A stretch of DNA of 64,000 nt. Source: an uncultured Ruminiclostridium sp. GTDB taxonomy: Bacteria; Bacillota; Clostridia; Oscillospirales; Ruminococcaceae. A program made the position numbers and the translations under genes. Location of the stretch: the NCBI GenBank assembly GCA_964456025.1, contig CAYVZH010000010.1, forward strand, positions 349 through 64,348. The letters run 5' to 3'. Positions 3,095 through 64,000 of this stretch are shown here, one piece after another; position 1 is the stretch's first letter; each line of letters opens with the position of its first letter. The notes below the pieces were generated by a model. That model did no database searches. It was given only the letters and a program-made list of their open reading frames with translations, and had not been told where the DNA came from.

Positions 3095-3450
3095 TTTAAG
3101 AGAAAAAATATATTACCGGGGGACGCTGTCCCCCGAACCCCCTGCAACCCTTTGAAAAGGCTTGACCTAAACTTTAATATTGCTTTATTGGGATATAATA
3201 AAAAGGAGAAAGTTTTTTACAATTAGACAAGTTTAGGAAAAATTCGACGAATAGTTAAAAATTCCTTGCTTTTAATAAATTTGAAAAAGCGATATTGCCT
3301 TTCGCTTCCTTTCGGTGTCGAAAGGAAGTGGGGTTCGGGGCGCGACAGGAGGTCGCGAGGTAAGCGCCCAAGGCGCCGCACGGACGCGGCGCAAAACAAA
3401 GCGCTTGCCAACGAAGCTCCCCAAAATAAATATATTTTCTCTCTTTTTTC
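3095..3450. repeat. Family B bipartite REP-like element (two inverted arms around a 99-bp AT-rich spacer)
   Basis: Left arm ends AATATTGCTTT (3186) and right arm starts AAAGCGATATTGCC (3286). GGGGACGCTGTCCCC hairpin. 3155-3186 is the exact reverse complement of 63501-63532. Confidence 0.75.
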
Positions 3451-3470
3451 TCTTATAATCTCTCAAAAAC

Positions 3471-13335: not shown

Positions 13336-13580
13336 TTAACGGTCTGCCTTTTTTCTTCGCCCTCCGGCGCCGTTGTCGGGAGAGCGCTGTTTTCTTACTT
13401 TACTATTTTACCACATTCTTCCGAATTTTGCAATATTTTTTTTAAAAAATTTCGTTTTTATTTTTGGGGCAGGACTGCCGCTTCGGGCGTTCTTGTGAAA
13501 TAAGGAGAAATTTGACAAAACAGCGCTTTTCGTGTTATATTGATACCAACGAAAAGAACCGTTCTGGAAAGGAGCTTCCT

Positions 13581-19431: not shown

Positions 19432-20024
19432 ACGTATTTTTAAGCTTCGTATCCGCCGCGCTCCTCGCGGTCTTTGTCCAGAACTCGGTTCTGGAGCGCG
19501 CTCTCGGCGTCAACGTCCTTTTATACGCCTCGCGGAAAAAGGAACACCTCCCCGGCTTCTTCTTCGCGATCACCTATGTCACGACGATCTCCTCCGCGAT
19601 CGTCTGCGGGCTTGACAGGCTTCTGAGCGGGTGGGAATATTACGCCGCCGTTATGCCGATTCTATATATAACGGTCGTAAGCATGGTCTATATCCTGACG
19701 CTCGTGGTGATCTGGTGGTTTTTCCCCCGTCTCTTCCGCTCGCTCAAAAAATACGTTCATCTTTCGGTTTTCAACTGCTCGGTCATCGGCGCGCTCTTTC
19801 TGGGCGGACAGCTCGGCGGCGATCTCCCCTCCTATCTCGGCTACGGCTTCGGGACGGGGGTCGGCTTTCTCGTCGCGGCGTATCTTCTCTATATCGCGCG
19901 CGACCGCCTTTACTCGCCGCTTGTGCCCGCGGCGTTCCGCGGATTTCCGATCATGACGGTCTATGTCGGGATCCTTTCCCTCGCACTGTACGCGTTTACG
20001 GGGTATTCGACGGCGGCGAGGTGA
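19428..20024 (+). CDS. RnfA/NqrE-like membrane protein (degenerate)
   Basis: FVQNSVLERALG, FNCSVIG, GTGVGF, AAFRGFPI..VGILSLA; overlaps the upstream stop (ATGA). Confidence 0.8.
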   Translation: MNVFLSFVSAALLAVFVQNSVLERALGVNVLLYASRKKEHLPGFFFAITYVTTISSAIVCGLDRLLSGWEYYAAVMPILYITVVSMVYILTLVVIWWFFPRLFRSLKKYVHLSVFNCSVIGALFLGGQLGGDLPSYLGYGFGTGVGFLVAAYLLYIARDRLYSPLVPAAFRGFPIMTVYVGILSLALYAFTGYSTAAR

Positions 20025-20028
20025 CCAA

Positions 20029-20128
20029 TACTATTTCACTTCCAATGTGTAGACAAAAATTCTGCACAAAATCCATTTATCCAAGATTTTGTTTGAATTT
20101 TTGTACACATTTAGGTCGTGAAATAGTC
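20029..20128 (-). mobile_element. Family A palindromic MITE-like element (reverse orientation)
   Basis: TACTATTTCAC..GTGAAATAGT termini; the interior is the reverse complement of 1890-1990; begins 5 bp after the rnfA-like stop. Confidence 0.7.
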
Positions 20129-20261
20129 AACTTCCTTTTGCGAAACGAAAACTTTTTTGCAGGGTATTTTCGTTCCCTTTCTCTATGCTTCTTCGTTTTA
20201 AATAAGGTTTGTGCATTTTTTGTTCCTTTGGCTGACCAAAGGAACCGAAAGTTCACCTCGG

Positions 20262-20335
20262 CAAAAGCTTTGCTTGCGCCGCGTCCGTGCGGCGCCTTGG
20301 GCTTTTGCCTGCAAGCCTCCTGCTTGCCCTCTGCG
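20262..20335 (-). repeat. Family B sub-module (reverse)
   Basis: Reverse complement CAGGAGG..CCCAAGGCGCCGCACGGACGCGGCGCAA matches 3345-3400 and 63560-63615. Confidence 0.65.
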
Positions 20336-20732: not shown

Positions 20733-20815
20733 CTTTCGCTTCCTTTCGCCGCCGAAAGGAGGCAGGGGTGTGGGGACGGCGTCCCCACAATAAAATAATT
20801 TTTCTCTTATTATCT
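20733..20815 (+). repeat. Family B arm (solo)
   Basis: TTTCGCTTCCTTTCG..CGAAAGGAGGCAGGGGTGTGGGGACGGCGTCCCCAC plus T-rich tail. Confidence 0.65.
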
Positions 20816-20847
20816 CTCTTATTTCCCACAAAAAGAAGGTGAATCCC

Positions 20848-28838: not shown

Positions 28839-28867
28839 TTGACAAATAGAATAAATCCTGTTATAAT
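28839..28867 (+). promoter_or_regulatory. Consensus sigma-A promoter
   Basis: TTGACA-17-TATAAT with TG extension. Confidence 0.8.
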
Positions 28868-40326: not shown

Positions 40327-40600
40327 AAAAGAGAAAAAATTATATGACCGGGGGACGCTGTCCCCCGAACCCCCTGCTTCCTTTTGTGCCAAAAGGAAGC
40401 GAAAAGCAGCACTGCTTTATAAAGAATAAAATTAAATTGTTATTCTGCAATTTTAATCCAAGTTTTCTGCAAACCTGTTGAATCGTGCGGACTTTTCCTT
40501 TTTAGTGGCTTGTAAAAGCGATATTGCCTTTCGGTTCCTTTCGGCTACGAAAGGAACTAGGGGTTTGGGGACAACGTCCCCAAAAAAAATATATGTCTTT
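40327..40600. repeat. Family B bipartite element (96-bp spacer)
   Basis: Left arm with GGGGGACGCTGTCCCCCGAACCCCCTG identical to 3117-3144; right arm AAAGCGATATTGCCTTTCG..GGGGACAACGTCCCC. Confidence 0.75.
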
Positions 40601-40610
40601 TGTCTCAAAT

Positions 40611-43127: not shown

Positions 43128-43153
43128 GAAGCGTCCTTTCCGTGAAAATTTCA

Positions 43154-43463
43154 TACTTATTTTCGCTGAAAAAGCGTCGAAAAAATCAAGCAAAAACTTG
43201 GATTTGTGCGGTTTTGCGCAGATTTTTTCGGTACGCTTTTAAGCGAAAATCAGTATCATGCTGCTTCACGACCCGAATGTGCACAAAATCCAAGCAAAGA
43301 CTTAAATTTGTACTTATTTTCAATTAAAAAGCGTCGAAAAAAACAAGCAAAAGCTCGGATTTATGCGGTTTTGCACAGATTTTTTCGGTACACTTTTAAG
43401 CGAAAATCAGTACTATGCGGCTTTGCGCAGAATTTTTGTTTACACATCGGAAGCGAAGCAGTA
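43154..43463 (+). mobile_element. Stack of three family A MITE-like copies (one tandem, one nested)
   Basis: Copy 43154-43255 flanked by TCA/TCA; a second copy (43259-43310 plus 43413-43463) is split by a third copy (43311-43412). Confidence 0.75.
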
Positions 43464-43567
43464 TCGGTCACTTTTTGTCATTTTTGACGAAGGGGCTGTC
43501 CCGTTTGATATTTCTATCTATTATATCACATTTTTTCCGAAATTGCAACACCTCGGGAAAGAATAAA

Positions 43568-48270: not shown

Positions 48271-48325
48271 AAAATCTGTAATATTCGACAAGTTCGTTGA
48301 AAAATCGTCGAATATTACAGATTTT
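48271..48325. terminator. Perfect 19-bp inverted repeat between convergent genes
   Basis: AAAATCTGTAATATTCGAC / GTCGAATATTACAGATTTT with a 17-nt loop. Confidence 0.55.
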
Positions 48326-48346
48326 CGTTTTTTCAAAACATGACAG

Positions 48347-48440
48347 AAAGCAATATTGCTTTTCGCTTCCTTTTGGCTACAAAAGGAAGCAGGGGGTATG
48401 GGGGACAGGGTCCCCCAAAAACATATACTTCTCTCTTATA
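48347..48440 (+). repeat. Family B arm
   Basis: AAAGCAATATTGCTTTTCGCTTCCTTTTG..CAAAAGGAAGCAGGGGGTATGGGGGACAGGGTCCCCCA. Confidence 0.7.
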
Positions 48441-48445
48441 ATCTC

Positions 48446-51400
48446 TCACTCAACCGCACGAAACTCCGTTTTTTCGCCCGTGGCGAGATCGACGGTCATG
48501 ATCATGTGATCGGTCACGGCGTAAAGGATCCCGTCCCGGATCGCGGCAACCCGATCCTTCGACTGAATGTCATAAAAAGACAGCTCCGCCGCTTTTTCGA
48601 GAAATGAGCCGTTATCGGCAAAGCAGACAAAGCGCTCAATCTCGGAAATCCCGTCAAAGGCGACATACGAGACCGCCGCGTATTTTCCGTCCTCGCTTAC
48701 GGCGATCCGCTCGCTGTTTTCTTCGGCGTCGCCCGAGAGATAGCGCGCGTATTCGGGCGCGGTTTTTTCATCAACCCCGATCCGCGCCGAACGCAGAACC
48801 GAAAGCCCGTTCTCCTTGTCATAGCCGTAAACCGAGAGCAGGAGCGCGGTTCGTTTCCCGTCCGCGTCCGACTCGGCGGAAAGCCCGATCAGGTTTTCGC
48901 CGAAGCCCGAAAGCTTTTCATAATAAACCGCGTTCGGGTTCGCTTCCGCCGCCATAGGCTCCTCCCCCGTAAAATCAACACAGTAGAGCTTTGTCTCACT
49001 CTCCGTTTCGGTCACAATATACGCGATTCCGTCGAGATAGCTCACCCCGCTCAGCCGTTCGCCCGCCGCGAAGCCTTCAAGCCGCACGTAGCCCTCCTCG
49101 GTCTTTTTTTGTGCAATAAGCGTGCCCTCCGCGCTGTTGTACGAAACAATACAGTTCTCCTCCGCGCTCAGGCAGTCCGCGCCGTAGCATTCTCCCCGAA
49201 CCGTTTCCTGCGAGAGAAGCTCGGTACCCGTCCCGATCCGCCGGAGCCGGATCAAATGCGTCGTGTTCCAGTCGGGGAGAAGGAGCGTGATCCGATCCCC
49301 GTCAAACACCGCGTACGTATCATAGCCGCCGAGAACGGCACTTACGCGGGGTTCCCCGCCGCTCACCGTTCCGATCACGGAAAATCCGCCGCATACCGCG
49401 CCGTCGGCGAGCAGGATCTCCTCATACCCGAGCGCTTGCTCCGTTTCCCCGATCCCATAGCGCGGGAAAACCGTATGTCCGCCCGCGGGAGTGACCGACG
49501 TAACGAGGGTAAAAATCCCGTCGCCGATCCAAAGCGCGGAATACCGCCCGTCCTGCCGATATGTTTCGATCGGGGAAAGCGCCTTATCGTACACCTCGAC
49601 CCGTACCGAAGCGCCCTCCTCGTCATAAACGAGGTAGACCCGATCTTCCCGCGCGGTAAAGCCGATGAGACCGCCGTCCGCGCTCAGGGGAAGCTCCGCC
49701 GAAACGCGCGGAGCCTCGGGCGAGAGGGAAACGGCGCGAAGCGCACCCTGCCGCAAAAAATAAAGCGAATCGCCCGCCGCCCGAAAGTCGTCGGTCAGCG
49801 GCTCAGAATACGGCTGTGCGCCCGTCCGATAGGGCAGGAGGATGTTTTTCTGCACGCGGGATTTCATTTCCGACGCCGCGGCGAGCACGTCCGCGTCCGA
49901 CTCGATCGTAACCGTCGGAGATGACGGCACGGGCGCGTCAATTATCTCCTTCTCGGTCGGGAGCACCGTCCCCGTCATCAGGAAGCGGATCCCGAAGCTC
50001 CCCGCGATCAGAAGCACCGCGCATACCGCGCAAAACGCGAGTTTTCCATTATTGACGCCGCGATAATAGACGTCGTCGTCAATGAAAAACTCCTTACCCT
50101 TGTATTTTTCGCGGCGAGGCTTTTCGGCTTCCTCGTCGTCGCCGAGGTCGGGAACCGTCGGGCGGAACACCTCCGGAGCAGGCGCGTCCGGCTTTTTCCG
50201 CGGCGCGGGCTTTTCCTCCTCGCCCGAAAGCTGCCCAAGTACCGCCGTATTGACGGGCGGCGTAAAGGCTCCCGTATTTTCGGGACGGACGACTTTTTTC
50301 TTTTTTGCGGGCTTTTCCTCTTCCTCGCCCGAAAGCCGCCCGATCACCGCCGTATTGACGGGCGGCGTAAAGGCTCCCGTATTTTCGGGACGGGCGCCTT
50401 TTTTATTTTTCGCGGGCTTTTCCTCTTCCTCGCCCGAAAGCCGCCCGATCACCGCCGTATTGACGGGCGGGGTAAAAGGCCCCGTGTTTTCGGGACGGGT
50501 CTCTTTTTTATTTTGTGCAGGCGCGGACTTTTCCGCGTTTTTCTTTGCGGGGAGGGGCTTTTCCGCCGCGGAGGGCTTTTTCCGCTCCACGGTAAAAAGA
50601 CCCGCCTGTTCCGTCTGCCGGCGCTGTTCTTCCTTTTTCTCTTTCCATTCGAGAAGCTCGTTTCTCCGCTTTACGGCGGAAAGAAGCTTATAATAATCCT
50701 CCGAGGTGAGCGGCGAGCTTTCGAGAAGCTCGATCAGCCGTCCCTTCGTCAGATTCGGATTTTCCTGAATCTCGCGGTAAACGTCGTTGCTGATCCGGGT
50801 GTTTCCGATCAGCTGTAAAAATTCCTTCCCCTTGATCCGCTGCGCGCTTATCACGCCGATAAACGTCCTCGCGTCAAGCGGCTTCCCGCCGGAAGCGGAT
50901 TCCGTTTCCGCTGCGGGCTTCGTCTCGTCCGATTTCCCGTCGGGCGCTTCCTTTTCGAGAAGATGTCTGTCTTCGGGGAGCGGCTTTTCTTCGGGGGGCA
51001 GATCCCTTTCGGGCATGGGCGGCTCCGTACGATTCGGTCGGACCTCCGCAGGGACGGGAACGGCAAGCTTTTTCTGTTTTTCCTCCGGGAAACGGATCCC
51101 CTCGATCTCCCGAAGAACCGCCGCCTTCTCCTCGCCGAGCTTTTTCTCCGAATCAATCAGCTTCCGCTCGACCGTTTCGTCCTTCAAGCCCGTAATGACC
51201 GAAATTTCGTGAATATTATAATGGAAGGCATACGACATGGCGCAGACGATCCGATCGAGGCTCGGGAGCTCTGAAAACCGACCTTCTCCGCGCGGCTCGA
51301 CCCCCTCCGCGCGGTATTCCTTGATCCGCGCGACAAGGTGCTTGGTAAGCTCGCGGGAAAGCCACGCCTGTAAATGCGCGCCGTCCCGCATCTGCGCGAT

Positions 51401-57826: not shown

Positions 57827-58028
57827 AACAGTCTCCTCCCGATCTAAAGGAGTTAATCCTCCCGCGCGAAAACGCGGGGAAGAAAACCATAGAATGAAAC
57901 CATAAAATAATTCTAAACATAAAGATACACTTTAATAATACTATAAAGCGGCGCGATTGTCAAGTAATTTTCCGAGAAAGGGTCGGATTTTCGGAATTTT
58001 TTTGCGCTTTCCGGACAGAAAATAGTGC

Positions 58029-59705: not shown

Positions 59706-59757
59706 TAAAAATCTGCGCAAAACCGCATATATCAAAGCTTTCGCTTGATTTTTTGTA
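59706..59757 (-). mobile_element. Family A internal core remnant
   Basis: AAAAATCTGCGCAAAACCGCATATATCAAAGCTTTCGCTTGATTTTTTGTA is the reverse complement of the family A core; termini absent. Confidence 0.65.
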
Positions 59758-59800
59758 TGGTTTTCAATCGCATATTAGTATAAAAGAAAGGAAAAATATC

Positions 59801-60619
59801 ATGAAAAAGATCCTCGGAGCCAACATCGCGCGGTATCGGAAGGAGATCGGCCTGACACAGCGGGAGCTTGCCGAACGGCTGAACATTTCCTGCCAGGCGG
59901 TAAGTAAGTGGGAAAACGGTCAGACCGCGCCCGATCTGTACCTCCTGCCCTCGATCGCCGAGCTCCTTCACGTCAGCACGGATCGCCTGATGGGGTGCTT
60001 CCACCGCTTTGATCCCGTGAACGATTACGAGAGCCGCTATAACACCGACGAATATTACTGGGGTGTAAAGCCCTCGTATATGTGCCTGAAAATTCTCGAG
60101 CTTCTGCCGCCCGACCGCTCCCTGAGCGTTCTGGACATCGGCTGCGGCGAGGGGAAGGACGCCGTTTTCCTCGCGCGCTGCGGCTATCGGGTAAGCGCGT
60201 TCGACGCGACCGAGATCGGCGTGGAAAAAACCAAGCGGCTCGCGGAAAAGGCGGGCGTTTTCGTGGACGCGTTCACGGCGAATCTCCTCGATTTCCGGCT
60301 GGATCGGAATTTCGACATTTTATTTTCCAGCGGCGTGTTCCACTTTATGAAGCCCGAGCTGCGCGAGGAAATCATTGAAAATTACAAGCTTCACACCAAC
60401 CCGAACGGGATCCACGCGATCAACGTGTTTGTTGAAAAGCCGTTCGTCCCCGACCCGCCCGAAAAAGAGGTGCGCTATCGCTGGAGAAGCGGCGAGCTGT
60501 TTACGATGTACCATGACTGGTATATCGAGGACTGCTCGGAGGTGGTATTTGACTGCAATTCGAGCGGCGTTCCCCATAAACACGCGATGAATACGGTATA
60601 CGCAAGGAAGAGAACGTAA
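59801..60619 (+). CDS. XRE HTH fused to a TehB-like class I SAM methyltransferase
   Basis: LTQRELAERLNISCQAVSKWENG; VLDIGCGEGKDAVFLA; YKLHTNPNGIHAIN. Confidence 0.85.
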   Translation: MKKILGANIARYRKEIGLTQRELAERLNISCQAVSKWENGQTAPDLYLLPSIAELLHVSTDRLMGCFHRFDPVNDYESRYNTDEYYWGVKPSYMCLKILELLPPDRSLSVLDIGCGEGKDAVFLARCGYRVSAFDATEIGVEKTKRLAEKAGVFVDAFTANLLDFRLDRNFDILFSSGVFHFMKPELREEIIENYKLHTNPNGIHAINVFVEKPFVPDPPEKEVRYRWRSGELFTMYHDWYIEDCSEVVFDCNSSGVPHKHAMNTVYARKRT

Positions 60620-60642
60620 GGAGCTTTTCCGAAAGGAACCCC

Positions 60643-60671
60643 TTGACAAATCCCCCGAAATATGCTAGAAT
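60643..60671 (+). promoter_or_regulatory. Sigma-A promoter of the T-box leader
   Basis: TTGACA-17-TAGAAT with TG extension. Confidence 0.8.
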
Positions 60672-60686
60672 AACCTCAATATCCAC

Positions 60687-61030
60687 AAAGCGTTGATGGG
60701 AAAGCAGTAGGAACCGGTTTTTCCTTTCATACTGATTTTTAATCAAAAAGTGTACAAAAAATCAAGCAAAAGCTTTGATTTATGCGGTTTTGCGAAGATT
60801 TTTTGTCTACACTTTTATTAAAAATCAGTATCAGAGACCCCGCGGCAGGTGTGAGCGGGGAGGAGCCCGGTTCTCGAATTACCTCCCGGAGCGGCAGCCG
60901 GAACGGGTTTCCTTCGGATTCCCCACTACGGCGCACGGGCCCGCCCGTTACAGCGGATCATAGTAATAAACCGAGGTGGTACCGCGATCTTTCGCCCTCT
61001 TTTGGCATTACGCCAAAGGAGGTTATTTTT
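60687..61030 (+). ncRNA. T-box riboswitch, probable Tyr specifier (UAC), interrupted in Stem I
   Basis: GCGTTGATGGGA..AGTAG 5' end, AGAGA, GGTGTGA loop, GAATTAC-CTCCCGGAG specifier region, CCGTTA, antiterminator AGGTGGTACCGCG..CGCCCT, terminator CTCTTTTGGC/GCCAAAGGAG plus T run. Confidence 0.88.
60730..60830 (+). mobile_element. Family A palindromic MITE-like element inside the T-box
   Basis: TACTGATTTTTAAT/ATTAAAAATCAGTA termini, 101 bp, TCA direct repeats at 60727-29 and 60831-33. Confidence 0.85.
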
Positions 61031-61049
61031 TTAAAAGGAGACGAGAACG

Positions 61050-61937
61050 CTGAAAACGATCCCCGCAAAGACCATTCTCCAGAAAAACAAATCGACCGCC
61101 TGGTTCGGGAACGACTATAACATGAACCTTTATCGGGGCTGCTGCCACGGCTGCATTTACTGCGACAGCCGGAGCGAATGCTATCGGATCGAGGATTTCG
61201 ACGAGGTGCGGGCAAAGGAAAATGCGCTCCCGATCCTTCGGGACGAGCTTCGCCGAAAGGTTCGCGGCGGCGTGATCGGGACGGGGAGCATGAGCGACCC
61301 GTATAATCCCTTTGAGGCGACCGAGCTTCTCTCGCGCCACGCGGCGGAGCTGATCGACGCGTTCGGCTTCGGGCTTACGGTCATTACGAAAAGTACGCTC
61401 CTTACCCGCGATATTGACGTTTTTCAAGGCATTCGGGAGCATTCGCCGATCCTGCTCAAAATGACGGTCACGACGGCGGACGACGCGCTGTCCCGCCTTG
61501 TCGAGCCGAACGCCCCGCCCTCCTCGGAACGCTTCGCGGCGCTGAAAACGCTCGCGGACGCGGGACTTTTTACGGGGATCACGCTGATGCCCGTTCTCCC
61601 GTTCCTTGAGGACAGCGACGAAAATATCCGCACGATCGTAAGAACGGCAAAGCAAAGCGGCGTCCGCGTGATCTATCCCGCCTTCGGCATGACCCTCCGC
61701 GATCGGCAGCGGGATCATTATTTCGCCGCGCTCGACCGCCTTTTCCCCGAAGAGAAGCTGTCCGAGCGGTATCGGAAGCAGTTCGGGAATTACTACGAGT
61801 GCCGCTCGCCGCGGGTGAAGGCGCTCTGGCGCGTTTTTACCGAGGAATGCGAAAAGGCGGGGATCCTGTACGAAATGCGGGATATTATCCGCGCCTATCG
61901 GCAGGGATATGAGGAGCAGCAATTAACGTTTTTTTAA
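61050..61937 (+). CDS. Radical SAM protein (SplB/Rv2578c-like), probable CTG start
   Basis: CCHGCIYC = CxxxCxxC; GSMSDPY; ITKS. The in-frame extension KTIPAKTIL begins at CTG 9 nt after AAGGAG. Confidence 0.85.
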   Translation: MKTIPAKTILQKNKSTAWFGNDYNMNLYRGCCHGCIYCDSRSECYRIEDFDEVRAKENALPILRDELRRKVRGGVIGTGSMSDPYNPFEATELLSRHAAELIDAFGFGLTVITKSTLLTRDIDVFQGIREHSPILLKMTVTTADDALSRLVEPNAPPSSERFAALKTLADAGLFTGITLMPVLPFLEDSDENIRTIVRTAKQSGVRVIYPAFGMTLRDRQRDHYFAALDRLFPEEKLSERYRKQFGNYYECRSPRVKALWRVFTEECEKAGILYEMRDIIRAYRQGYEEQQLTFF

Positions 61938-62162
61938 AGTTAAAGGTATCAACCTCCCGAACCCCTTGCGCTGTAACGATTTCATAGATTCGAGTAACGA
62001 TTGGTACACAAGTACTTTATTTCAGCACAGAACGGCAAATCGAAATCCGGTAAGGCAGGATAGCATGAGGAAGCTGAAATTGCTCAAAACACCAACTGAT
62101 AACGGAATAACAGATCCGGTTATACACAGAGATAACTTTCATGTTTGCGGAGGCGTTTTAAC

Positions 62163-62653
62163 TTGGAAAAGTATTTTGAGATATTAAAAGAAAACGGGGC
62201 TGATTTAGCCATAAAGATAACGGCTGATACCATAGTGACGGCAGCCTGGACAGTCTATCGCTGCAAATACGGGTGCGATACTTATGGGAAAAGCCACTGC
62301 TGTCCGCCGAATTGTCCCACATGGAAAGAAACGCAGGAAATGATAAACTGCTTTCACTACGGGATTCTGTTCAGATGCCATGAAATGAGCATAGTGACGC
62401 CTCTTGCCGTAAAAACGGCGCGAGAGTTGTTTTTGGACGATTATTACAAAGTTATTGCTTTTGGCAGCGGACCATGCAAGAAATGCCAGACATGCAATCC
62501 GGACCGCTGTAATTTTCCGGGCAAAACCGTTCCATCTATGGAAGCGTGTGGAATTGATGTTTTGCAACGGTAAGGAACAACAATCTTGAAATCCATACAT
62601 TACGAGAAAAAGATGATATTCAGAACCACTTTGGGCTTATATTGGTTGAATGA
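62163..62653 (+). pseudogene. DUF2284-like Cys-rich metal-binding protein with a single-base frameshift
   Basis: CKYGC..CCPP, GPCKKCQTC, PSMEACGIDV. Adding one T to the run at 62560-63 gives ..GIDVFATVRNNNLEIHTL..QNHFGLILVE*. Confidence 0.75.
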
Positions 62654-62839
62654 ATTTCAAATTCCGGTTTATCGGGAGGTTTATAAAAATCAACATTTTC
62701 ACTGATACATAGCTGTATCAACAGAGGTAACGGAATACCGGAAACACTTGAAAGGTCGTGATATCCGTGAGATTTCAGAAAAATCTCATCGATTACGGAA
62801 AAGCCGAATGAAAAAATCATTTCAGAAGGAGGCTTTTCT

Positions 62840-63319
62840 ATGATAAGGCAAGCGGAAAAAACCGATCTGCCGAATCTTACGGCGCTTTTCCGACAGCTTC
62901 ATGCGCATCACGTCCGGATCAAGCCCGAATCCTTCCGAATGCCGGAGGATCAATGGTTTTCCGAACGGATCGGCGGAATTCTGGACGACGGCGAAATGAC
63001 CGTTCTCGTAAGCGTTGGAGCGGGCGGCGATCTGAACGGCTATGCGGCAGTACGGATCATGACCGTCGATTCCGCCGAAAGGATCCCACGGAAAATGTGC
63101 TATATTGAATGCTTCGCGGTGGCGGAAAGCGCGCGCCGGAAAGGGATCGGAACGGCGCTTTTCGACGCGGTGAAGATGTTCGCGAGGAAAAACGGCTGCG
63201 GGAGCGTTCAGCTCGGTGTTACCGCGGTCAATACGGACGCTGTCCGATTTTATGAAAAAATGGGGCTTGTCCCGCGAACCGTACAAATGGAAATACGGTC
63301 TGTCGAAGAAGAGAAATAA
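62840..63319 (+). CDS. GNAT family N-acetyltransferase
   Basis: YIECFAVAESARRKGIGTALF..NTDAVRFYEKMG. Confidence 0.9.
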   Translation: MIRQAEKTDLPNLTALFRQLHAHHVRIKPESFRMPEDQWFSERIGGILDDGEMTVLVSVGAGGDLNGYAAVRIMTVDSAERIPRKMCYIECFAVAESARRKGIGTALFDAVKMFARKNGCGSVQLGVTAVNTDAVRFYEKMGLVPRTVQMEIRSVEEEK

Positions 63320-63324
63320 AAGAG

Positions 63325-63660
63325 AAGTATTATTTTGCAGGGGCGCTGCCCCCGCACCCCCGCTTCCTTTTGCAGCCAAAAGGAAGCGAAAAGCAATATG
63401 GCTTTATATAGGATTATCAAGGAAGAAAGTCTTGCCAAATTCCTCAATTTATCCGAGAAAAGCCGAATCTATCAAAATTACGGTTTATAAAAAACCGTTA
63501 AAAGCAATATTAAAGTTTAGGTCAAGCCTTTTTAAAGGCTTGCGGGGTCTGGGGATGCGACAGGAGGTCGCAAGTCAAGCGCCCCAAGTGCCGCATGGAC
63601 GCGGCACAAAACAAAGCGCTTGACACAGCGTCCCTGCATCAATATATTTTTCTCTTTTTA
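63325..63660. repeat. Family B bipartite element (95-bp spacer)
   Basis: Left arm ends AATATGGCTTT (63405) and right arm starts AAAGCAATATT (63501); shares modules with 3095-3450. Confidence 0.75.
63620..63648 (+). promoter_or_regulatory. Candidate sigma-A promoter for tyrS within the repeat
   Basis: TTGACA-17-TATATT, 50 bp upstream of the tyrS ATG. Confidence 0.55.
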
Positions 63661-63697
63661 AATCTGTTTCAATAAAAAATTTCAGGAGGAATAAAAA

Positions 63698-64000
63698 ATG
63701 AAGCTTTACGAAGAACTCGTCCGCCGCGGGCTGATCGCGCAGGTAACGGACGAAAAAGAGATCAGCGAAATGATCAACGAGGGGAAGGCGACCTTTTACA
63801 TCGGCTTCGACCCCACGGCGGACAGCCTGCACGTCGGGCATTTTATGGCGCTTTGCCTCATGAAGCGGCTCCAGCAGGCGGGAAATAAGCCGATCGCCCT
63901 GCTCGGCGGCGGGACGGGCATGATCGGCGATCCGTCGGGAAAAACCGATATGCGGAAGATGATGACGAAGGAGACGATCGAGCACAATATCGCCTGCTTT
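63698..64000 (+). CDS. tyrS: Tyrosine--tRNA ligase (3' truncated by window edge)
   Basis: AGGAGG RBS; [45 protein letters not shown]. Confidence 0.96.

Follow-up and report, generated by a model that had tools for sequence, protein, structure and literature searches.

In the 64,000-nt stretch of Clostridial DNA analyzed here (the window), the sequence immediately upstream of tyrS contains a near-consensus promoter motif that is a composite of three parts, with a -35 hexamer from a repeat module that we term B, a spacer from a second repeat that we term A, and a -10 hexamer from AT-rich host DNA. The reading that we lean toward, without great confidence, is that a junction promoter was built by the nested insertion of these two non-coding repeats into an ancestral spacer between a GNAT acetyltransferase gene and tyrS, and that sigma-A RNA polymerase starts near 63655. 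The sequences show that A (~240 nt) inserted into AT-rich DNA, with a probable duplication of ~9 nt in which TATATT was already present, and that B (70 nt) subsequently entered A at its terminal hairpin loop. Helix P2 of B contributes its 3' arm (GCGCTTGAC), which together with an A residue completes TTGACA, and the remaining 17 nt of A set the distance to TATATT. The proposed constitutive tyrS transcript, with a leader of ~43 nt, would be independent of the Tyr T-box that lies 2.7 kb upstream, and read-through from the T-box operon (60643) probably persists alongside it. The promoter would be a by-product of the B-in-A geometry plus a pre-existing TTGAC variant, and not an adaptation that rescues tyrS.

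Table 1. Features of the tyrS region and of the comparison copy, in window coordinates
Feature	Position	Strand	Remarks
Comparison copy, B in terminal loop of A	3341..3436	+	TTGCCA 3405-3410, 20-nt spacer, TATATT 3431-3436
Operon promoter TTGACA-17-TAGAAT	60643..60671	+	11/12 match; upstream of Tyr T-box
Tyr T-box leader, specifier GAA-U-UAC-C	60690..61032	+	T-box sequence GGUGGUACCGCG intact; Stem I interrupted
Third-family MITE	60720..60836		Inside Stem I of the T-box, directly 5' of AGAGA bulge; 104-117 nt, 40-nt inverted arms
Radical SAM gene, first after T-box	61122..61937	+	PF04055; 57% identical homologue at same position in L075
DUF2284 gene	62145..62573	+	Surrounding 62021-62722 missing from all sister-strain contigs
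GNAT acetyltransferase gene	62840..63319	+	Ancestrally directly before tyrS
Left copy, probable target-site duplication (TATTATTTT)	63328..63336		Filled window aligned against empty L150
Inserted composite repeat, A carrying B	63337..63642		Inverted ends GCAGGGGCGCTG / CAGCGTCCCTGC; absent in L150
Module B, 70 nt	63556..63625	+	In loop of A terminal hairpin GGGGA^CAGCGTCCC; boundary from X3 A-only allele
B helix P1	63556-61/63567-72	+	Loop AGGAG
B helix P2	63574-82/63616-24	+	3' arm supplies TTGAC
B helix P3	63588-94/63601-07	+	Loop ATGGAC
-35 hexamer TTGACA	63620..63625	+	First five bases (TTGAC) = 3' arm of B helix P2
17-nt spacer	63626..63642	+	3' arm of A terminal hairpin (CAGCGTCCCTGC) plus ATCAA
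-10 hexamer TATATT	63643..63648	+	Within right target-duplication copy (63643-63651); host-derived
Predicted transcription start (C, T, T)	63654..63656	+	Predicted from -10 position; leader ~43 nt
Ribosome-binding site AGGAGG	63684..63689	+	Direct reading
tyrS 5' part, ATG 63698-63700	63698..64000	+	Runs off window; TyrS N-termini 80-92% identical in 80 genomes

Direct reading and a consensus scan both place TTGACA-17-TATATT before tyrS on the + strand (Table 1; junction sequence cTTGACAcagcgtccctgcatcaaTATATTtttctc), as the first-pass annotation had reported. The motif matches TTGACA-17-TATAAT at 11 of 12 positions (6/6 and 5/6 in the two hexamers), and its 17-nt spacer falls at the optimum of the 16-18 nt range of sigma-70/sigma-A promoters. 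The gene that it precedes by 49 nt is present as annotated, with a best TyrS match of 92% in a species-representative genome collection; only the start codon that had been implied for it was one base off. The distance of the ribosome-binding site and the predicted leader length are normal. The primary 5' end of a sigma-70/sigma-A transcript lies 6-8 nt past the -10 hexamer and is usually a purine, and the putative +1 bases here (C, T or T) are pyrimidines and unfavorable. The putative promoter also has a GC-rich spacer and is without an extended -10.

We compared this match with what is expected by chance and with the rest of the window. For a 378-nt spacer with this first-order composition, the probability of a match of at least 11/12 is ~0.0007, and in the whole window nine such sites are seen versus 0.32 expected, a ~28-fold enrichment. 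Eight of these nine have a 17-nt spacer, and seven of the nine, the T-box operon promoter included, are followed after 29-121 nt by an ORF in the same orientation. The other eight near-consensus TTGACA-17/18-TATAAT sites lie at 13512, 28839, 46276, 51753, 58029, 59619 and 60643 (+) and at 57963 (-), with the perfect 12/12 site at 28839 falling inside a long ORF; these sites would make a useful promoter training set for this organism. Promoters of the TTGACA-17-TATAAT type also precede the T-boxes of the relatives L070 and L151. The enrichment, the placement close to ORFs and the promoters of these relatives indicate that the organism uses the canonical consensus, which gives such a match predictive value in its genome. 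Since matches of at least 11/12 are enriched and mostly precede genes, a working sigma-A promoter is likely before tyrS, and we regard activity of the junction promoter, as predicted from its sequence, as probable. A scan of 60600-64000 revealed no intergenic + strand promoter-like sites of at least 9/12 upstream of tyrS beyond those at 60643 and 63620, with one further 9/12 + strand match at 61002 located inside the T-box terminator. An alternative + strand promoter inside A or upstream of GNAT was rejected because no site there reaches 9/12.

A possible but rather doubtful alternative is that the motif is a silent by-product with little or no activity, and that tyrS is transcribed by read-through from 60643 only. 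No terminator-like site was found on the + strand in intergenic DNA from the T-box terminator to tyrS, and contigs from RNA libraries (X17 and X21, which carry an allele without either repeat) span both the junction from the T-box to the radical SAM gene and that from GNAT to tyrS. These contigs are consistent with a single operon from the T-box to tyrS, with DNA carry-over in RNA libraries being possible. Strains that contain A without B (see below) must depend on read-through, the start would be a pyrimidine, and repeats can yield chance matches, all of which argue for a silent motif. Against it, an 11/12 match with optimal spacing is seldom inactive, such sites are enriched in the window and mostly precede genes, and nothing is abnormal in the ribosome-binding site distance or leader length. 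A point against the reading of an active junction promoter is that strains with an A-only spacer evidently manage to express tyrS in its absence, which makes the promoter dispensable.

The spacer between GNAT and tyrS (63320-63697), which starts right at the GNAT stop codon, is nearly all repeat DNA. Element A is MITE-like and has the terminal inverted repeats (GCAGGGGCGCTG / CAGCGTCCCTGC) expected of a MITE, as well as a terminal hairpin (GGGGAC..GTCCCC), subterminal hairpins that read TTCCTTTnnnnAAAGGAA, and tracts of the type G4-N3-G4. Elsewhere in the window, copies of A occur at 3100-3470, 40333-40605, 48283-48448 and 20733-20818, with the 40333-40605 copy being complete and without B. 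The at least five copies in 64 kb, together with presence/absence polymorphism, are likewise those of a MITE. Three A copies (those at 3100, 40333 and tyrS) have imperfect, AT-rich direct repeats of 9-12 nt on either side that may be target-site duplications, with their length being approximate because the strains that supply the filled allele and the empty one are ~8% diverged.

The origin of the three parts can be followed in natural alleles, with three spacer states observed among sister strains and the window, specifically empty (69 nt), A only, and A plus B. The sister-strain alleles are taken from assembler contigs of mixed metagenomes, not from reads. L150, which with L151 was one of just two useful loci from a metagenome scan with GNAT, has the empty allele, in which the segment 63328-63640 is missing between GNAT and tyrS genes that have 91% and 94% nucleotide identity to those of the window, respectively. 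L150 reads TGTATT at the position of TATATT in the window. The same segment is skipped by contigs in metagenomes X2 and X4 (DNA) and in X17 and X21 (RNA libraries). An A-only allele is present in X3 as a 442-nt contig in which CAGGGGTGCGAGG is followed directly by ACAGCGTCCCTGCATCAATATAT, joining the window sequence exactly at 63625; it has the right junction and TATATT as in the window, and CGAGGA in the -35 slot, with B missing. A second A-only allele, from X1, reads GGGTTTGGGGACAACGTCCCCAAAATAAA followed by TTTTAAATCTG and lacks both hexamers. TATATT predates B. The A plus B allele was found in the window and in L068 only, with L068 matching the window at 100% identity across 3545 nt and so not an independent confirmation, and a search of indexed runs with the A plus B junction sequence returned no run containing the junction. 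The idea that a repeat element had donated the promoter is supported in that the repeats built the promoter-like motif, with the -35 hexamer and the spacer being repeat DNA that is missing in empty alleles (and the -35 in A-only alleles too); the -10 hexamer is host DNA.

The structure of the composite raises the alternative that it acts at the RNA level, with the composite in read-through RNA being cleaved, or stalling or terminating polymerase, such that tyrS is uncoupled from the operon and the junction promoter becomes its main source. As RNA, 63300-63700 folds into one closed structure of -150.9 kcal/mol (z -9), with a closing helix of ~30 bp formed by the element ends plus flanks and then a U-rich stretch. 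MITE transcripts are also known RNase targets (PMC10969869). We consider this reading very unlikely, given that canonical terminator geometry was not found and that A-only alleles persist in populations although they share this closing helix and lack any promoter.

We also characterized module B, which supplies the -35 hexamer. In addition to the copy before tyrS (63556-63625), the window contains one at 3341-3411, also in the terminal loop of A, and one at 20260-20322 on the minus strand. Of the 67 loci returned when the core of B was used as a query, ~37 are real B copies; one MAG (JAMPCH01) contributes ~30 and CAZKKZ01 ~8, and further copies come from Clostridia of the rumen and gut. The B survey used 37 copies from other genomes and metagenome contigs, and B is found in three different host-repeat contexts. 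When 36 distinct copies are aligned on the three helices (Table 1), 94.9% of cells are paired and 15 of the 22 pairs, including all nine of P2, exhibit changes on both sides. The covariation score was reached by 0 of 500 shuffles, and slid controls drop to 23-43% paired. Covariation is strong in P1 and P2, the junctions CCCAAG and CAAAnCAAAG are invariant, and the P3 hairpin GCCGC-AYGGAC-GCGGC is also invariant, with P3 having been fixed by the search pattern. No Rfam match to B was observed at the gathering score, nor at E<=10 over 62500-64000. A twister ribozyme, considered from the likeness of CCCAAG, was dropped given that this motif is a hairpin loop there and that Rfam gave no match. The B loops CAGGAUG/CAGGAGG and AYGGAC carry GGA and may resemble CsrA binding hairpins. 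Rumen Treponema sequences (L009, L023, L062 and L046, the complete genome of Treponema ruminis) share the P3 hairpin plus CAAAGCAAG, with hairpins that have AUGGAU loops next and with P1 and P2 missing; this likeness may reflect either remote kinship with B across phyla or convergence. The structured module B appears to be undescribed, and to be a more novel object than the promoter motif.

The first-pass annotation had ascribed the motif to compensatory promoter evolution. In this rival explanation the T-box is disabled by a MITE in Stem I, after which selection optimized the repeat promoter (TTGCCA to TTGACA, with 17-nt spacing) for an essential synthetase. The arm near 3400 indeed reads TTGCCA-20-TATATT (3405 and 3431), and is homologous to the tyrS arm over ~116 nt at ~80% identity; this comparison copy points toward the 3' terminus of a convergent gene. 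The A of TTGACA (A63623) is a helix residue that pairs with T63575, and the 3341-3411 copy has G-C there, with both sides differing. Among 36 B copies the pair at this position is GC in 25, AU in 6, GU in 1 and UA in 1. The P2 arms at tyrS (GTCAAGCGC/GCGCTTGAC) contain the partner change that matches the A of TTGACA. Moreover, metagenomes X1, X2 and X4 contain B copies at other loci that read TTGACACA and have different flanks (AGCACCCCAAAAAAA...) beyond it, indicating that TTGAC is a trait of a B subfamily. Judged from these copies, TTGACA was inherited as a variant of a B subfamily, complete with a compensating helix change, and is not a local point change, which argues against selection for TTGACA at tyrS, as does the greater age of TATATT relative to B.

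The spacing does not favor optimization either. In B-in-A-loop copies the first TA-rich hexamer lies 14, 16, 16, 17, 18 or 20 nt past the -35 slot, with 17 being the tyrS copy, and the copies other than tyrS have TTGCNA in that slot. Near-promoter geometry is, on this sequence comparison, intrinsic to the B-in-A composite, and 17 nt is not exceptional within it. What does speak for the rescue explanation is that among 40 B copies the tyrS copy alone matches the promoter consensus at 10/12 or better, the next best being 9/12. The refuting condition named in the first-pass annotation, a 17-nt spacing in most copies, is therefore approached only in part, with the 17-nt distance lying inside the 14-20 nt range and a match of at least 10/12 being confined to tyrS.

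The state of the T-box also bears on this question. A permissive Rfam scan of the window identified a single T-box (RF00230) at 60778-61002 (58.6 bits, E 4e-10), within a leader whose start near 60690 was judged by eye. The leader has the specifier codon, T-box sequence and terminator/antiterminator that define a T-box, with an intact terminator at 60996-61032 (11 bp with a T-run). Its score is below the RF00230 gathering score of 93 relative to 123.9 bits for the uninterrupted homologue in L070, and the shortfall coincides with insertion of the MITE. The interruption of the T-box that had been annotated is therefore real, and consists of a 104-117-nt MITE in Stem I. This MITE belongs to a third repeat family with ~40-nt inverted arms (CATACTGATTTTTAAT...ATTAAAAATCAGTATCA) and at least five copies in 64 kb, the others being at 1880-1991, 20021-20127, 43144-43471 and 59707-59789. 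The scan for repeats also revealed three 105-nt units in tandem at 50214-50528, with 79-100% identity. The empty site of the T-box MITE, with 60726 joined to 60831, is observed in X4, X17, X5 and X21, such that the insertion is polymorphic in sister strains.

The rescue explanation gains from the location of this MITE, which adjoins the AG bulge that is part of the tRNA-elbow platform, and from the accompanying drop in Rfam score from ~124 to 58.6 bits. It also gains from the co-occurrence of the T-box MITE and the tyrS-proximal insertion in the window, with both sites empty in X2, X4, X17 and X21. However, RNAfold predicts that the MITE forms a separate arm and that the Stem I base and distal hairpin still form, with the T-box sequence and terminator also intact. 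Furthermore, the X1 and X3 strains have the Stem I MITE (contigs cover 60636-60775) together with an A-only spacer, and so have no B and no -35 hexamer. Because these strains combine the MITE with A-only spacers, an interrupted T-box without a B-borne -35 is evidently tolerated, and the supposed need for such a -35 after T-box interruption is not supported. Taken with the helix-paired A and the TTGACACA copies at other loci, the strains that have an interrupted T-box and no B speak against compensatory promoter evolution, which we regard as quite unlikely.

A displaced T-box, which the same annotation had assumed, is not supported by the operons of relatives. The order T-box(Tyr), genes, GNAT and tyrS is found in L075 (36-nt gap between GNAT and tyrS) and L151 (4-nt gap), and the same T-box-to-tyrS order with other gene content in L070, L076 and L082. 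In many of the more distant relatives the T-box lies directly before tyrS. The gap between GNAT and tyrS is 4-38 nt in L151, L074, L075 and L078 and 69 nt in L150. The permissive Rfam scan of 62500-64000 found no T-box remnant directly upstream of tyrS. From these gene orders, T-box, genes, GNAT and tyrS is the ancestral operon of this clade, in which the T-box never adjoined tyrS, a further point against rescue.

Additional rearrangements were observed in this operon. The segment 62021-62722, which contains the DUF2284 gene and a 66-aa minus-strand ORF, has depth 0 in all eight metagenome runs examined, and sister strains have either 75 nt or another A copy between the radical SAM gene and GNAT; the radical SAM-GNAT locus is a rearrangement hot spot. 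In L070 (3546-4000), the closest species with a TyrS identity of 92%, the order is T-box, a small membrane-protein ORF, a 455-nt GC-rich palindromic spacer and tyrS. The interval from the T-box to tyrS seems to collect insertions repeatedly.

A broader interpretation, which is speculative and on balance unlikely, is that B is an undescribed mobile structured module that enters hairpin loops across gut and rumen Clostridia, that its TTGAC subfamily is a portable -35 cassette, and that the tyrS alleles record the stepwise rewiring of a riboswitch-controlled essential gene to constitutive expression. If the junction promoter is active, then two selfish repeats inserted one after the other have given a constitutive transcript to an essential synthetase gene that is normally under the control of tRNA charging. 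Every intermediate allele still segregates in gut populations, so that three natural alleles would allow a direct test of how each step changes T-box control. If the promoter is inactive, then the tyrS case amounts to an ordinary insertion of repeats between the genes of an operon.

Among known systems, junction promoters of insertion sequences (IS1, IS2 and IS257) have a -35 hexamer in the IS end and a -10 hexamer in flanking DNA. The tyrS motif is similar to these hybrid promoters in combining an outward -35 of an element with a host -10 at the correct spacing. It differs in that the tyrS elements are non-autonomous and without a transposase gene, and in that the spacer and the -35 come from different elements. 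Regarding the T-box, the operon leader resembles RF00230 members in having a Tyr specifier (UAC), a T-box sequence and a terminator. It differs in that this clade has one to three genes between the T-box and tyrS, with tyrS last, and in that Stem I of this strain carries a MITE that accompanies an Rfam score under the gathering threshold.

Correia elements of Neisseria (CREE/NEMIS) are, in the account given by PMC10969869 (citing Black 1995, Siddique 2011), short non-coding repeats with inverted ends and many intergenic copies. The same account has them inserting at AT-rich (TA) targets and forming hairpins in their transcripts, with some subtypes carrying or creating outward sigma-70 promoters whose strength depends on the subtype and the target junction. 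The tyrS elements share with them inverted ends, many copies, an AT-rich target, RNA that forms hairpins and an outward promoter motif, and the tyrS composite RNA might be processed as Correia transcripts are (RNase III). In contrast, the tyrS case is in Clostridia and without sequence similarity to Correia elements, its promoter is a predicted one, and its -35 is provided by another module, lodged within the terminal hairpin of the first element, rather than by the inverted repeat. The pneumococcal BOX, RUP and SPRITE elements are described in the same source (PMC10969869, citing Croucher 2011) as clustered and nested repeats near regulatory sequence that can alter expression of neighbors. 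The likeness to these is that of modular, structured intergenic Firmicutes repeats that insert into one another, whereas BOX modules are linear (A-B-C) and the tyrS module sits inside a terminal hairpin loop. Promoter-bearing MITEs have been reported from Neisseria, Acinetobacter, Porphyromonas, Coxiella and Shewanella (PMC10969869), to which an active tyrS promoter would be a Clostridial addition. The tyrS case is an instance of an already-known phenomenon, and what is unusual about it is the three-part origin together with the natural intermediate alleles.
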